From the UHGV virus genome UHGV-0210063: a stretch of 41,102 nt of DNA, one strand, 5' to 3'. Position 1 is the stretch's first letter; each line of letters begins with the position of its first letter. Source of the stretch: a virus. Made by a program: the position numbers and the translations under genes. Shown piece by piece: positions 939 through 41,088 of the stretch. A model generated the notes under the pieces. It ran no database searches and was not told the DNA's origin. It saw only the letters and a list, made by a program, of their open reading frames with translations.

Positions 939-1424
939 ATGCCAGAACTCGTTGATCCAACAGACTCATTAATTAGTTTTCAATACGCCTTTTCTAATGG
1001 TCTGATTAAGCCTTCACCATGCATAGTTCACCCAAATATGAAGGTGCTTTTGGATGATGCAGAGGGTACACCACGGTTTACTTATGCATTCTTTGAAGGA
1101 GAAAATGTTAAAGGTGTTGCTATATATGTCCCTGCAGAGTTTGTTGAAGGTAAACCATGCTTTGGCGTTGGCTATGCAGTAGCCGATGAATATAAAGCGC
1201 AAGGCATCGGTACTCAACTTCTCATCGCCAGCATTGAAGAAATGCAATACGGATTTAGAAATTCCTTCAATGAATTCTATGTAGAGGCTATTGTCGGGGT
1301 TGGTAATCAAGCCTCCAACAAATTAGCTGCAAAAGTTTTATCTGATACTCCTGAGCCAGGGACAGATTCTTACTCAGGAAAACCTATCAATCAGTACATG
1401 AAACTTTTCAAAACCACAAAATAA
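939..1424 (+). CDS. GNAT-family N-acetyltransferase (moron)
   Basis: 161 aa; motif-A-like KAQGIGTQLL and motif-B-like NQASNKLAAKV; AGGA ribosome-binding site before ATG; AT-rich; opposite strand to late genes, between Rz and HNH. Confidence 0.6.
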   Translation: MPELVDPTDSLISFQYAFSNGLIKPSPCIVHPNMKVLLDDAEGTPRFTYAFFEGENVKGVAIYVPAEFVEGKPCFGVGYAVADEYKAQGIGTQLLIASIEEMQYGFRNSFNEFYVEAIVGVGNQASNKLAAKVLSDTPEPGTDSYSGKPINQYMKLFKTTK

Positions 1425-1435
1425 CTACCATTCTG

Positions 1436-1461
1436 GCGCAGATTTTTGCGCCTTTTCAGGT
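1436..1461 (+). terminator. Rho-independent terminator after GNAT gene
   Basis: Hairpin GGCGCA-gattttt-TGCGCC followed by TTTTCAGGTTT. Confidence 0.55.
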
Positions 1462-1602
1462 TTGCAGTTCACCTGCCACGCTTTGTTATGCGCCTGAATG
1501 TCCCGCTTCGTCTGTTGCATTATCATAAGTAATAGCGTAGGTTGACACCTTGGCTCTCTTTCGCCACCGGCGAATCTTTAGCGGATTATCCTTGGCCGTT
1601 TT

Positions 1603-2070
1603 TTATCTGAGACATTGCTCACGAATATATAGCTGTGCCCCTTCCAGTTGCTTCTGCATCGTCATCAACCGTTCTCTGAGGGTGAAATAATCCCGTTCAG
1701 CGGTGTCTGCCAGTCGGGGGCTGGTTGCATTATCCACGCTGGTGGGTCCGGTGGCTTCACGCACGGCTGCGGAGCAACTGGCATTGACCCGCAGGCGCTT
1801 ACGACCAGCGGCAACATCAGCGCGCAGAGTTTCATTTTCAGCTTTCGCATTGGCTAATTCTCTCGAGTACTTTGCATCGAGCGCAGCAACATCACGCTGA
1901 CGCTGTTGCATGTCAGCGATGGTGGCAGTCGCCTGCTTCAGCTCACTGACTTTTTTATCACGCTGTTCTTTGTAGGCGATGGCGTTATCACGGTAATGAT
2001 TGACCGCCCACGACAGGCAGACGATGGTGCAGATAACCAGAGTATAAATAATCGCTGCGACTCTGCTCAC
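1603..2070 (-). CDS. Rz: Spanin inner-membrane subunit Rz
   Basis: Close match to lambda Rz ([19 protein letters not shown]...[14 protein letters not shown]); probable GTG start overlapping endolysin stop; ORF track extends to 2085 with a TTG start. Confidence 0.85.
1665..1850 (-). CDS. Rz1: Spanin outer-membrane lipoprotein Rz1, embedded in Rz in another frame
   Basis: 61 aa, [20 protein letters not shown] lipobox, proline-rich, ends [12 protein letters not shown] as in lambda Rz1. Confidence 0.85.
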
Positions 2071-2600
2071 TGATCTATCCCCCAACAGGCTAATGCGCTT
2101 TCCTGGTCACGACGAATAACCTGTCCATAGCAGTTATTTGAACGTATGCGGCAATCGCGCCCACCATCTTTTATCCACCAGCGAATCGCCTCGCATGCGC
2201 CCTTACGATCACCGGCATTCAGCCGCTTATAAAACGTCGACGGGAAACACTTACCGGGGCCAATGTTATAGGGACAGAATGACGCTATACCCGCTTTCTG
2301 TGGTTCGGTCAGTGGTACTTTAATATTGCGCTCTACCCATGCCAGCGCCTTATCACGTTCAATAGCGTTAACCTGGTCGCATTTTTCCTTCGACAGCTTC
2401 ATTCCCGGTATGACGGGCTTACCATCCACCATTGTGGCACCCCGACAGATGGTCCAGATGCCGGCCCCATCGCGGTATGCCGTTGTGTGGTTACCTTCTT
2501 TTTCATCCAGAAACTGGTCGAGAATATCAGGCGCGGGCGCACCGACGGCAATCAGTGCCAGAACGGCAGCCGACAGGCCGTATCTGATTTTTGCGTTCAT
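2067..2600 (-). CDS. Endolysin, GH24 lysozyme with N-terminal SAR (signal-anchor-release) segment
   Basis: 177 aa; hydrophobic N-terminus [14 protein letters not shown] then lysozyme-like core; position between holin and Rz. Confidence 0.8.
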
Positions 2601-2663
2601 GGATATTTATCAGGATTTATCGGTTTCTGCCCACGGACAGGTTTATCTGTTCCGGTCAGTGAC

Positions 2664-3014
2664 TTAAGGTTGTGATTCCGGAGGAGTCTTCAGAGAACCA
2701 GTAATTCTTCCTGGTAGCTTTCCTTTGTAGGTTATCCACACATTCTGCGCATCTAAAATTACGGGGCGCTTTTCCGGCGGCTGCTCATCCCCTTCACATA
2801 ACCCGGCAGCAACATCCAGGAAGACCTGTCTGATGCTCCTTCTGGCTGCTGCCTCATAAAACTCCAGCGCGGCACCTTCAACACGGTCCAGCGAGATGTC
2901 CAGGTCAAAAATTTCACCGTCAAAGCGTTTTTTGTCCCGTAACGCTAAAGTTACCGTAACTTTATTCTCAAAATTGCGGATCCCTTTCACAATCAGTTCA
3001 TAGTTTTGAGTCAT
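2664..3014 (-). CDS. Hypothetical protein (116 aa) inserted between holin and endolysin
   Basis: Intact ORF tightly packed in the lysis cassette; acidic, no transmembrane segment, no recognisable motif. Confidence 0.5.
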   Translation of the reverse strand: MTQNYELIVKGIRNFENKVTVTLALRDKKRFDGEIFDLDISLDRVEGAALEFYEAAARRSIRQVFLDVAAGLCEGDEQPPEKRPVILDAQNVWITYKGKLPGRITGSLKTPPESQP

Positions 3015-3018
3015 TGAA

Positions 3019-3234
3019 TTACTCTCCCCGTGCAGCCTTACGCTTGTCTTCTCTGATTTTGAAGTACAGATTTGTCAGATAAGTCAGGAAGCCCAGAACC
3101 AGACTCCCCAGTACACCAATCGCAGCCCACTGTGAAGGACTGACCTGATCAAGCCACTGTAAAAACCAGTAGCCAGCACTGCCTGCGGAGGTGCCGTAGG
3201 CAATGCCCGTTGAAATTTTGTCCATGGATTTCAT
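3019..3234 (-). CDS. S: Class II holin (S21-type pinholin) with dual start
   Basis: 71 aa [30 protein letters not shown]...; near-identical to phage 21 S; two Met codons at positions 1 and 4. Confidence 0.9.
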
Positions 3235-3300
3235 AGCCTCACCTCCGCAAATAACGGATGGCGTAGTTTTACACTGAGAAATGAAAGGGATTTGAAAAGA

Positions 3301-3325
3301 AAAACCCGCAAAAGCGGGCGAAACG
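3301..3325 (-). terminator. Rho-independent terminator between tRNA array and holin
   Basis: Minus-strand hairpin CCCGC-TTTT-GCGGG followed by T-run. Confidence 0.5.
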
Positions 3326-3526
3326 ATATATACAGAAAGGAAAGCACTCTATCCAACAAACCACCCACAGTTAATCGGAATAAAAGCAGAGTGCTTATGA
3401 ATGATCGCCTGCTCGAAGGTTAGTATTTCTGCACAGCAATTTTGCAAAAAAAGGCGATCATTCATAACTTAAACGTCTTTCAGTCACTCCGGGATTTCCC
3501 ATCATCGCAGACTGAAAGACTCTAAC

Positions 3527-3601
<75 letters not shown>

Positions 3602-3604
3602 ATA

Positions 3605-3680
<76 letters not shown>

Positions 3681-3716
3681 ATCAAGTAGCGCGCATTCTA
3701 ATCGCGTGGCCGAAAT

Positions 3717-3801
<85 letters not shown>

Positions 3802-3809
3802 GGACTTGA

Positions 3810-3885
<76 letters not shown>

Positions 3886-3887
3886 AC

Positions 3888-3964
3888 TGGACCGCCACCG
3901 GGGACTCGAACCTCGCACACTCAACTTAAAGGGTTGACGCTCTTTCCTGATGAGCTAGTGGCGG
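3888..3964 (-). tRNA. Atypical tRNA-like gene, anticodon loop CCUUUAA (UUU anticodon, C at position 33)
   Basis: 77 nt; perfect 7-bp acceptor stem C1-G72, D-arm with GG, 5-bp anticodon stem, TTCGAGT T-loop, CCA; non-canonical C33 and one T-stem mismatch. Confidence 0.5.
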
Positions 3965-3965
3965 C

Positions 3966-4041
3966 TGGTGGCCCTTGCTGGATTTGAACCAGCGACCTGG
4001 CGATTATGAGTCGCTCGCTCTCACCACTGAGCTAAAGGGCC
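3966..4041 (-). tRNA. tRNA-Ile2 (anticodon CAU, ileX-like; elongator Met not excluded)
   Basis: 76 nt; closely resembles E. coli ileX as recalled, anticodon loop CUCAUAA. Confidence 0.8.
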
Positions 4042-4150
4042 GAGCGCAGGATAATAACGTTACGAAATCAATGTTGCAAGCATTCAAAAATCACCCTTAT
4101 CTCCTCCACTAACGCATTAACCATGTCTATCCGAGATAAGTGGCACAAAA

Positions 4151-4182
4151 AACCCGCTTGTGGGCGGGTTTTGTTTGCTTTT
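4151..4182 (-). terminator. tR'-like terminator downstream of the Q-like gene (bidirectional hairpin)
   Basis: CCCGCCCACAAGCGGG hairpin followed by TTTTTTGTG on minus strand; also T-rich on plus strand. Confidence 0.5.
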
Positions 4183-4235
4183 GCCATCACGTACAAAATC
4201 GGCAAAATATCAGATTTGCATGAAATATATGCCTT

Positions 4236-4931
4236 TCAATCTACTTTTGCAACACTTTGCTTTGAAAATGCCGCCTTTTGTTTTGAACGTGTTCTCATTA
4301 CAAACAATAAAGCCTCACTATCAAGTCGGTGAAAAATGTGTTTCATTGCAACCCAGTGACGAGTAAATGTTTTGGACCAGTTTTTAGTTGTCACTCCCGC
4401 CAGTAATGCCAGCTCCTGGTATTCATAACCTTCCCCACCAAAAAGTTCTGCTTTTACTGCCTGCGCCGCCAGCCAGATTAATTTTTTCAGGCGTTCCTGC
4501 GTTTTCCCTGCAATTTTTCTGGTACCGGATTGAGTATTAAATTCATTCCACGCCCACTGTGTTATCGCGATCTGATATTCCCAACAAATACTCCCGCTGT
4601 AACACCACAACAACCAGGCTTTATGATGTTCTTCAAGAGACAGAACAGCCCGCCGCCACGATGATGTCGAAAACTCAACCGGACTGACCAGAGGAATTGA
4701 CGTCCCCTTCGCCAGCGATTGCTTTCCCGGGATTGGTGGATTATCCCGCGTTATCATTTTTCCAGTCACTTCATCGCGGTACCGGATTTTTTTTCGCCTG
4801 TAACGCCCTGTATCGAACATGGCATTCTCTTGCCAGGCTTCAAGCTGACCTTTTGTTGCCCCACTCAAATCAGCGGTGGCGATAATGAGCTGCTCACGCA
4901 CAAACTGTAAATACTGGTTATTCATGCGCAC
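4236..4931 (-). CDS. Putative late-gene antiterminator (Q-like), assigned by position
   Basis: 231-aa ORF between rusA and the tR'-like terminator/tRNAs/lysis genes; no zinc-finger motif recognised. Confidence 0.35.
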   Translation of the reverse strand: MRMNNQYLQFVREQLIIATADLSGATKGQLEAWQENAMFDTGRYRRKKIRYRDEVTGKMITRDNPPIPGKQSLAKGTSIPLVSPVEFSTSSWRRAVLSLEEHHKAWLLWCYSGSICWEYQIAITQWAWNEFNTQSGTRKIAGKTQERLKKLIWLAAQAVKAELFGGEGYEYQELALLAGVTTKNWSKTFTRHWVAMKHIFHRLDSEALLFVMRTRSKQKAAFSKQSVAKVD

Positions 4932-38848: not shown

Positions 38849-40606
38849 TTAAAGCGAGCGGATGCCCACGCTGACCAGATGTTCAGACAGATCCAGCTCC
38901 GGTTCACCACCATTGACCAGCATCCGGCTCATTGCTGTAAACATCGCAACAGGGCCGTCGATTTTGGCTTCCTGCGTGGATTTATTCGGGAAGATATTGT
39001 CGTTTTTGTCCGGTTTTACCGTAACGTTAGACATCATCCAGTTCATGACCGGATGATTGCTGTGATGGAAACGCCCGGCATAGACCAGTGATTCCGTTTC
39101 CTTCATGGCCTCTGACAGATTGCGAACCGTCTGCGGAACCTCCACCAGCGGTATCCCTTCTTCAGCCAGTGCCAGGCTGAACTGCATCGCGCTCCACGGG
39201 TCAAATCCCAGTTCCCTGAGGTTTTCACCACCAATCCATTCCAGTAAGTCACTTTTTATCTGAGCATGATCGATAACATCACCATCCGTCAGAATCAGCT
39301 TATCCATCTCCGCCCACTTCCGGTAAAGTTCTGCCTGCTGCCGCGAGCATCGTTCCAGCCGTCCTTCCGGAAGCCAGAATTTAAAATCGGCATGAACATG
39401 CCCGTTATCCGTTCGCCAGAGTTTTGCCGCCGCACAGATATCAATCTTATGAGCAAGGTCAACGCCGACCCACATGGGATACGTTTTCAGCTCATGTCGT
39501 GGGGCAATGTATTCGCACTTCTCCCACTTAATCATGTCCATCCAGGCAGACTCTGCTGTTACCCACACATTCATGTGTTTGGTAAAAAAATTCACCCGCG
39601 CAGAGACCTGTTCTTTCGCTTTTTTCGCCAGGCGACGCAGATCATCCCAGCGTTTACAGATGCCCAAGCCGGGATTCGCTTTCTGCCAGACCGTTTCATC
39701 AAACGGATCATCTCCCTCATCGAGGGTGTAAATAATCGCAAAGTAGGAGTCGTCTTTTACCGCGCCCTCCACGTCGCTGTTATAGCCACGCAATACCTTG
39801 ATGGCGTAATCACGCTGCTCGTAACAAATCCCTTCCTTGTTAAACCCTGCCGTGGTGATACCAAATAAAAGGGACTGCAGACGGGCACCGGTTGCCGTTT
39901 CCAGAACGTCCCACACGTCACGGGTTTTATGTGCATGCAGCTCATCAATAATGGCGCAGTGGATGTTCAGACCATCTAGGTTGTTTGCATCCGAAGAAAG
40001 CGGTTCAAATTTTGATGCGCTCTGCTCCTGGTAAATCGCCAGCTTGTTGAAATCAAACAACCGCCCGAGTGTCGACCGGGCTTTTCTGACCATATTTTTG
40101 GCGTCTTCAAACACGATTCTGGCCTGGTCACGCGTGGTTGCGGCTGAATACACCTCAGCTCCGCCTTCACCATCTGCCCCCGTCATATACAGGCCGATAC
40201 CCGATGACAGAGTTGATTTTGCGTTTTTACGGGCGACTTCGTTGTACGCCGTCCGGAACCGGCGCACCATCACCGGACGTCCGCTGCCATCGCTGCGCAT
40301 GACAACTTCCCCGGTCTCTTCATTGACCAGCGGAATGACAAAACCAAAAATATTAATGAGGATAAATACATGCCAGTCCATCAACTCAATGGGCTGGCCT
40401 GCCAGCGCCCCTTTTACATGAGGCACAAATTTGTAGAAATTCAGGATGTGCTGCGCACGGGGTTCACTGAAATAAATCCCCCGCTCTTCGCCGTACTTCA
40501 GATCATCAAGAAAACGCTGGCAGGCCAGGCGGACAAATTCGCCAGCAACAATTTCTCCTGCAACAACACGTTCGGCGTAGCGGATCCCGTCAGCCACTTT
40601 TGCCAT
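38849..40606 (-). CDS. Terminase large subunit
   Basis: 585 aa; ATPase and nuclease regions; position after terS. Confidence 0.9.
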
Positions 40607-41088
40607 CAGTCTCTCGCTTTTAAAAGCTCCGCCAGCGGATCAACATCATCCGGTCCGGCGATATTTACTTTAGCCCGGCTTGCCGGTGACATACCAAACT
40701 CTGCAAGCATTGCCCGGATCCGCTTCCAGGCATCCGCTTTCATTGCCGCCGCGGGGTGCGCCTTAATCAGTACATCACCGCTCTGCGTTTCCGTGCGGTA
40801 GGTATACCCCTCAACATCGAGTGTTTCGCAGTGATGCCGATATTCGGTGTAGGCTTCCACCAGCAACTCGAGCGCACGCGCATCAAGCTGAGAAATGATC
40901 CCTTCCGCATTCAGCTCTTCCGCCATTCGCCTGAACCAGTACTTCCCCTGAGCCCCTAAATGCTGCGGAATTTTAGGAAGACCTTTTTCATCCTTTTTAG
41001 CGGTTTTTTTGTGGTCTTTAACGGGGCGCTTTGAGGGGTTGCCTCGAATCAAATGCAGGCGTGGCGGGGTTTTCGGAGGTCCTGACAT
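40606..41088 (-). CDS. Terminase small subunit
   Basis: 160 aa basic N-terminus; immediately upstream of and overlapping terL. Confidence 0.8.
   Translation of the reverse strand: MSGPPKTPPRLHLIRGNPSKRPVKDHKKTAKKDEKGLPKIPQHLGAQGKYWFRRMAEELNAEGIISQLDARALELLVEAYTEYRHHCETLDVEGYTYRTETQSGDVLIKAHPAAAMKADAWKRIRAMLAEFGMSPASRAKVNIAGPDDVDPLAELLKARD

Follow-up and report, generated by a model that had tools for sequence, protein, structure and literature searches.

A YdfR-family (DUF1327) gene between the holin and lysozyme genes of a phage 21-type lysis cassette

Related cassettes and layout of the locus

The family, the name and the cassette position of the gene analysed here are already known from Pfam, from RefSeq and from the annotation of Escherichia coli K-12. 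Indeed, in the Qin prophage of K-12 the YdfR protein (b1555, UniProt P76160) is encoded in the order essQ holin-ydfR-rrrQ lysozyme-rzpQ, and a member of the same family is found in the Shiga-toxin phage H-19B as an unannotated ORF between S and R, following an S21-type holin. The same gene as this H-19B ORF occurs in many Stx1a and Stx2c phages, in BP-4795 and, as gp05, in Stx2 phage 86. The reference cassette of phage 21 has no ydfR: S21 overlaps R21 and nothing lies between them, as a preliminary description of the present locus had stated.

Functional data have been reported for the K-12 protein, obtained with this allele only, which carries another C-terminus, and with overexpressed, tagged constructs (PMC13232886). 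A two-hybrid screen published in 2026 recovered YdfR residues 1-72, which were enough for a signal with RNase E; the full-length protein gave a two-hybrid signal with RNase E 1-597, and Strep-YdfR co-eluted with RNase E 1-598, a co-elution which could be bridged by RNA (PMC13232886). In addition, DNase-resistant nucleic acid co-purified with YdfR at a level similar to that of a known RNA-binding control, the authors cautioning that a contaminating protein could have retained the RNA (PMC13232886). Overproduction of the protein left growth unaffected and changed few transcripts, and in normal growth K-12 ydfR has almost no RNA-seq reads (PMC13232886). Two other screens list the gene: the Keio ydfR mutant was scored as envelope-defective in a CPRG envelope-integrity screen (supplement of PMC3879167), a phenotype which we suspect to arise from polarity of the kanamycin cassette on rrrQ, the lysozyme gene downstream, and an overexpression screen lists ydfR for a streptomycin MIC that rose threefold (PMC12924614).

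The locus under study belongs to UHGV virus genome UHGV-0210063, a stretch of 41,102 nt which was analysed as a whole and is here called the window. On its minus strand the genes follow the order Q, six tRNA genes, holin, 116-aa ORF, lysozyme and Rz/Rz1 (Table 1), the family matched by the holin being named 'Bacteriophage P21 holin S' in Pfam. The preliminary description had reported an extra, co-oriented and tightly packed gene between holin and endolysin, and this is borne out: the ORF occupies exactly 2664-3014 on the minus strand and encodes 116 aa, its ATG following the holin stop after 4 nt and the lysozyme ATG following its own stop after 63 nt. It differs from K-12 YdfR, which has 103 aa, a different C-terminus (EKLSEKVESYLQHQ...) and a 4-nt overlap with rrrQ, in its length, in its EKRP...GSLKTPP module and in its 63-nt distance from R. 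The lysozyme carries an E-x8-D-x5-T motif and, judging from its sequence, is probably an enzyme of the signal-anchor-release kind.

Table 1. Coordinates of features in the window and of ORFs convergent with DUF1327 genes at other loci (numbering is that of each sequence)
Sequence	Feature	Position	Strand	Basis or remark
Window	HNH endonuclease gene, at one window end	136-486	minus	
Window	GNAT-type acetyltransferase ORF, 161 aa	939-1424	plus	PF00583 E=4.4e-06
Window	Rz i-spanin	1603-2085	minus	PF03245 E=1.9e-49
Window	Rz1 o-spanin, embedded in Rz	1665-1850	minus	PF06085 E=1.4e-18
Window	Lysozyme R, 177 aa, N-terminal hydrophobic segment	2067-2600	minus	PF00959 E=4.7e-25
Window	Start of R, MNAKI	2577-2600	minus	
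Window	63-nt spacer ending in R leader GATAAATCCTGATAAATATCC, without Shine-Dalgarno sequence	2601-2663	minus	
Window	ydfR-family gene (DUF1327), ATG start, 116 aa and stop codon	2664-3014	minus	ORF list; PF07041 E=2.2e-42
Window	C-terminal part of ydfR (codons 76-116), linker and conserved peptide EKRP-VILDAQNVWITYKGKLPGRITGSLKTPP	2667-2789	minus	
Window	N-terminal DUF1327 core (codons 1-75), three strands and one helix	2790-3014	minus	AlphaFold, K-12 alignment
Window	Shine-Dalgarno-like GGGGAGAG in last holin codons, 9 nt before ydfR ATG	3022-3029	minus	Sequence
Window	S21-type class II holin/antiholin, 71 aa, MKSMDK dual start	3019-3234	minus	PF04971 E=1.4e-35
Window	Second terminator-like hairpin, between tRNAs and holin	3304-3322	minus	
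Window	Six tRNA genes between Q and holin	3527-4041	minus	
Window	Weak sub-threshold isrK match	4147-4219		Rfam
Window	Candidate leader terminator (strong hairpin and T-run)	4172-4149	minus	Consensus scan only
Window	Candidate late promoter, just downstream of Q	4252-4224	minus	Consensus scan only
Window	Q antiterminator	4236-4931	minus	PF06323 E=8.6e-92
Window	ORF sized and ordered like terminase large subunit	38849-40606	minus	ORF size, PhiR49_2 layout
Window	ORF sized and ordered like terminase small subunit, at other window end	40606-41088	minus	ORF size, PhiR49_2 layout
L080	Convergent ORF	3500-3766	opposite to DUF1327 gene	
L084	Convergent ORF	3311-3589	opposite to DUF1327 gene	
L092	Convergent ORF	4266-4553	opposite to DUF1327 gene	
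L095	Convergent ORF	4245-4529	opposite to DUF1327 gene	
L097	Convergent ORF	4233-4517	opposite to DUF1327 gene	
L101	Convergent ORF	2744-3040	opposite to DUF1327 gene	
L102	Convergent ORF	3317-3631	opposite to DUF1327 gene	
L106	Convergent ORF	4247-4486	opposite to DUF1327 gene	
L110	Convergent ORF	4282-4506	opposite to DUF1327 gene	
L111	Convergent ORF	4273-4821	opposite to DUF1327 gene	

The likeness to phage 21 extends to the presence of tRNA genes between the late promoter and S, two in phage 21 and six in the window, and to the layout of the spanins, with Rz1 within Rz; in fact, the region downstream of Q matches the order pR'-terminator-tRNA-S annotated in phage 21. The difference, beyond the absence of ydfR and the overlap of S21 with R21, is in the endolysin, R21 being 34% identical to the window lysozyme. 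The segment 4149-4252 is a candidate for the start of the transcript that would carry ydfR, and the tRNAs that would open it are Gly-UCC, two Thr-UGU, Tyr-GUA, Lys-UUU and Met-CAU. Apart from the tRNAs, no Rfam family scored above threshold in 1400-4400. We also considered whether ydfR goes with the tRNA genes ahead of S and discarded the idea, as phage 21 has the tRNAs without ydfR and K-12 Qin the reverse, with no tRNA annotated near its ydfR copy.

The translation signals of the cassette are noteworthy in respect to the inserted gene. In VT2-Sakai, which has no ydfR, the same Shine-Dalgarno-like element that in the window lies within the last holin codons directly precedes R, whose product begins MSRKL right after GGGGAGAG-TAA. 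A distinct, conserved leader devoid of a Shine-Dalgarno sequence, GATAAA(T/C)CCTGATAAATATCC, followed by the start MN(A/T)KI, is found in about 147 of the 154 tabulated 534-nt lysozyme ORFs of ydfR cassettes, and DNA similarity to VT2-Sakai R sets in only around codon 8: the inserted module thus starts at the holin stop and reaches into the opening codons of R. Since the strong holin-embedded ribosome-binding site precedes ydfR and not R, the insertion alters the translation signals of R. No stable RNA structure was detected in the 63-nt spacer (z = -0.09), and a consensus scan evidenced neither promoter- or terminator-like sites flanking 2664-3014 nor a promoter-like site between the holin start and ydfR. 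It seems that ydfR is translated on the late transcript by way of the ribosome-binding site within the holin gene.

Family membership, fold and mosaic structure of the protein

Assignment of the 116-aa ORF to the YdfR family is essentially certain. Residues 1-112 match PF07041 (DUF1327) with 143.6 bits against a cut-off of 25, and two PHROG families match the protein, phrog_406 (E=8e-67) and phrog_2091 (E ~1e-67), both labelled 'unknown function'. In E. coli chromosomes that carry identical DNA, RefSeq annotates a 'YdfR family protein' between a 'class II holin family protein' and a 'lysozyme', and an identical protein is encoded at the same position in PhiR49_2, an induced phage of ECOR13. 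Among ydfR alleles the pairwise dN/dS is around 0.2-0.5 in most pairs and near 1 in some close pairs. The ORF is considered a real gene because its Pfam score is far above the cut-off and because of the dN/dS of most allele pairs.

The other searches returned no match: none among PDB chains, by single-sequence or by profile search, none in NCBIfam, and none in PADLOC, where the window protein, a long allele and a set of neighbouring genes were run; in Pfam and PHROGs, the window protein has no match to a holin or lysis family.

The protein lacks a transmembrane helix and a signal peptide, as had been described, with a maximal 19-residue Kyte-Doolittle mean of 0.69, compared with 1.7-2.3 for the membrane proteins of the cassette by the same measure. 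Its earlier designation as soluble and acidic is in agreement with the lack of a membrane segment, the acidity being only mild: the pI is 5.5 and 18 D+E residues face 17 K+R, for a net charge of about -1. In the AlphaFold model, computed from an alignment that includes distant homologues, the core folds as three strands (residues 5-14, 18-27 and 33-43) and a helix (50-71), with block-mean pLDDT values of 77-93. The dsRBD fold, beside which this domain was set, has the order alpha-beta-beta-beta-alpha. Family alignments delimit a core of around 72 aa with the conserved motifs YEL.VK and EGA.LEFYE, and residues 77-116 are modelled with low confidence (pLDDT about 40-56).

The two parts of the protein have distinct histories. 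The N-domain exists as two deep alleles, separated by dS >1 at a dN/dS of about 0.3, and the window protein shares 55% amino acid identity in this domain with the H-19B type. The C-terminal part is common to both deep alleles (dN/dS 0.1-0.6) and in H-19B-type copies it is 76-78% identical to that of the window. The window and H-19B genes differ by a dS of about 0.25 in the C-terminal part and of 1.47 in the N-domain, and because the former is far below the latter ydfR is mosaic, the C-terminal part being a separately exchanged module. In fact, other alleles replace or lengthen the C-terminus, with family lengths from 103 to 287 aa (169-287 aa for the extended ones), and some H-19B-type copies are extended to 263-268 aa and then followed by a small convergent gene. 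Within the YdfR family, modules are shuffled.

Two further arrangements were observed among the family proteins. In P0154 (112 aa) the peptide EKRPIILEAQ.VWITYKGKLPGRITGSLKTPP follows an unrelated, coiled-coil-like N-terminal part, which corresponds to the C-terminal extension of the 176-183-aa YdfR alleles. Also, P0183 (176 aa) and P0189 (170 aa) consist of two tandem DUF1327-like domains, which hints that the single-domain forms may act as dimers.

Distribution and separability from the lysis genes

The holin-ydfR-lysozyme arrangement is ordinary in Escherichia lambdoid phages. DNA similar to ydfR was found in 4349 of 5426 complete E. coli genomes (~80%), a single genome having as many as 10 matching sites, and the gene order is the same at every Escherichia or Shigella locus with both flanks (around 170 sampled, covering both deep alleles). 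The tabulated loci have a holin-ydfR gap of 4 nt, reduced to 1 nt in those for which an upstream GTG was taken by the ORF finder. Among phage records, 101 carry ydfR, mostly Stx1a and Stx2c phages, versus 438 that carry an S21-type holin. Beyond Escherichia and Shigella the family has very few members: 5.8 billion proteins yield 311 clusters at 90% identity, 1.84 billion proteins yield 87 representatives, and 185,579 species genomes yield 8 loci. Two of the eight loci, in metagenome-assembled genomes labelled Veillonella parvula (L088) and Bacillota (L090), show the full E. coli-type holin-ydfR-lysozyme cassette, and a protein labelled Enterococcus faecalis (P0073) has an E. coli-type ydfR sequence; these Firmicutes labels likely result from mis-binning or contamination and do not reflect a real host range.

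The gene is optional and separable from lysis, a conclusion that is well supported by the comparison of cassettes with and without the gene. S is joined directly to R in phage 21, 434 and VT2-Sakai. The window holin is identical to phage 21 S at 70 of 71 positions (99%); VT2-Sakai, without ydfR, has a holin that shares 100% identity with the PhiR12_2_star holin and 99% with the Stx2 phage 86 holin, both from phages with ydfR; and 434, again without ydfR, has a holin sharing 96-97% identity with the H-19B and Stx1_499 holins. Likewise, the window lysozyme is 93% identical to R of VT2-Sakai. The occurrence of near-identical holins and of this lysozyme in cassettes devoid of ydfR therefore indicates that neither neighbour needs, or has adapted to, YdfR. 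A co-variation of ydfR alleles with holin alleles was rejected after this comparison.

Distant homologues, which are stand-alone proteins of 72-94 aa with 21-39% identity to the window protein, are encoded in prophages of Citrobacter, Enterobacter, Cronobacter and others. At all seven loci examined they lie outside lysis cassettes and never between holin and endolysin, their sites being downstream of the tape-measure gene, between minor tail genes, upstream of the tail-tip gene or, in the stretch from the lysis to the terminase region, downstream of a glycosyltransferase gene. The domain's function therefore does not depend on a holin or an endolysin.

At each of these seven loci a small convergent ORF directly follows the DUF1327 gene, and convergent ORFs were also observed after several E. 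coli alleles, among them those of Stx2 phage 86, of Evi, of PhiR12_2_star and of loci L080/L085 and L084. In PHROGs these partners, of 74-182 aa, fall into at least seven different families, none of them with an assigned function, and the window and K-12 copies have no convergent partner. The proposal that the convergent ORFs form one family was rejected, given an hhalign probability of 0.9%, the several PHROG families and the lack of a Pfam match.

Possible functions of YdfR

The reading that we favour, at about even confidence, is that window YdfR is an accessory late protein which acts on RNA or on RNase E, rather than a core component of lysis. Because its N-domain is 81% identical to K-12 YdfR (over residues 1-74), we infer that the protein may bind RNA, the catalytic N-terminal half of RNase E, or both. 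The gene would be read as part of the late transcript, using the Shine-Dalgarno-like element within the holin codons; the N-domain of around 72 residues would then contact RNA and/or the catalytic half of RNase E, and the protein might, more speculatively, affect how RNA is processed or degraded at the late stage of infection, such as the long late transcript starting with six tRNA genes. Small phage proteins are reported to contact RNase E in other systems, such as T4 Srd, T7 gp0.7 and phiKZ Dip. The resemblance of YdfR to these is a functional analogy only, and it is closest for T4 Srd, which reportedly binds the N-terminal half of RNase E, as does K-12 YdfR. The H-19B-type allele, with its 55% identity in the N-domain, may behave differently. 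A function on RNA does not explain the constant position of the gene right after the holin in Escherichia.

As a discovery the present finding adds little, the family being very common and known and the arrangement known too. Its interest is that ydfR is among the commonest genes of E. coli prophages, is also present in many Shiga-toxin phages and sits in the best-studied kind of lysis cassette, and that the report on RNase E and RNA binding by the K-12 protein makes its role testable (PMC13232886). Were such a role confirmed in a live phage, the biology of lambdoid phages would gain a regulator of host RNA decay that is expressed late, with possible consequences for how lysis genes and, in Stx phages, toxin-linked late genes are expressed.

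The preliminary description had proposed a lysis regulator or an unrelated moron co-expressed late, and had named identification as a known conserved protein of unrelated function among the outcomes that would refute its proposal. This outcome has in part come about: the gene is a member of a known conserved family, and the activity reported for its K-12 member is RNase E and RNA binding rather than lysis (PMC13232886). A regulator of lysis timing would be a cytoplasmic protein, made together with the holin, that binds the charged C-terminal tail of the holin or delays the release of the tethered endolysin. Other phages have lysis regulators that are soluble or peripheral, T4 RIII, P1 LydB and Mu releasin being precedents. 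In favour of such a role are also the position directly after the holin at every sampled Escherichia locus with both flanks, the holin-embedded ribosome-binding site that precedes the gene, the altered translation signals of R and the envelope defect scored for the Keio mutant (supplement of PMC3879167). Nevertheless, the comparative evidence weighs against it: holins that are 99-100% identical and a lysozyme that is 93% identical are found in the phage 21, 434 and VT2-Sakai cassettes without ydfR, obligate co-occurrence or co-variation with a holin or endolysin partner is not seen, and the distant homologues are never in lysis cassettes. Moreover, the protein has neither the membrane segment nor the holin-derived sequence of an antiholin, the matching PHROG families are all of 'unknown function' and none of 'lysis', and overproduction of K-12 YdfR has no effect on growth (PMC13232886). 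The suggestion of a lysis regulator has thus gained no support, and we regard it as unlikely.

A moron serving the lysogen, or acting against other phages by superinfection exclusion, defence or anti-defence, and unrelated to RNA decay and to lysis, is distinctly unlikely. In its favour, the gene is optional, its presence varying among near-identical cassettes, and its distant relatives occupy varied sites in late operons, usually beside a small convergent gene, as typical morons do; in this respect the earlier suggestion of a moron co-expressed late comes close to the comparative data. Against it, a consensus scan gives the gene no promoter- or terminator-like site of its own and it lies 4 nt from the holin stop, the PADLOC search returned no match, and the K-12 copy is almost devoid of RNA-seq reads in normal growth (PMC13232886). 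A variant of the RNA-directed reading is that DUF1327 proteins are factors travelling with opposite-strand inserts in phage late operons, the window copy having lost its convergent partner; a protein that binds RNA or RNase E could, speculatively, manage the sense and antisense RNA arising where late transcription enters such an insert. We consider this variant quite improbable.

Finally, it is very improbable that the chief effect of the insert is in cis, parting R from the strong holin-embedded site and so lowering endolysin synthesis with a dispensable protein, since the leader and MN(A/T)KI start shared by R in ydfR cassettes and the different start of R in VT2-Sakai, which fit this view, are set against purifying selection on both coding halves in most pairs, against the conservation of the domain as a stand-alone gene in other genera at 21-39% identity and against the K-12 copy, which overlaps rrrQ by 4 nt and has no spacer.

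The acetyltransferase ORF of the window, which has no PHROG match, is encoded opposite to the late genes, with Rz on one side and the HNH gene on the other, and it looks like a convergent moron. The ORFs at the far end are assigned to the terminase from their sizes and from the layout of PhiR49_2, and the window may correspond to a whole phage genome of around 41 kb, opened between the HNH and terminase genes.
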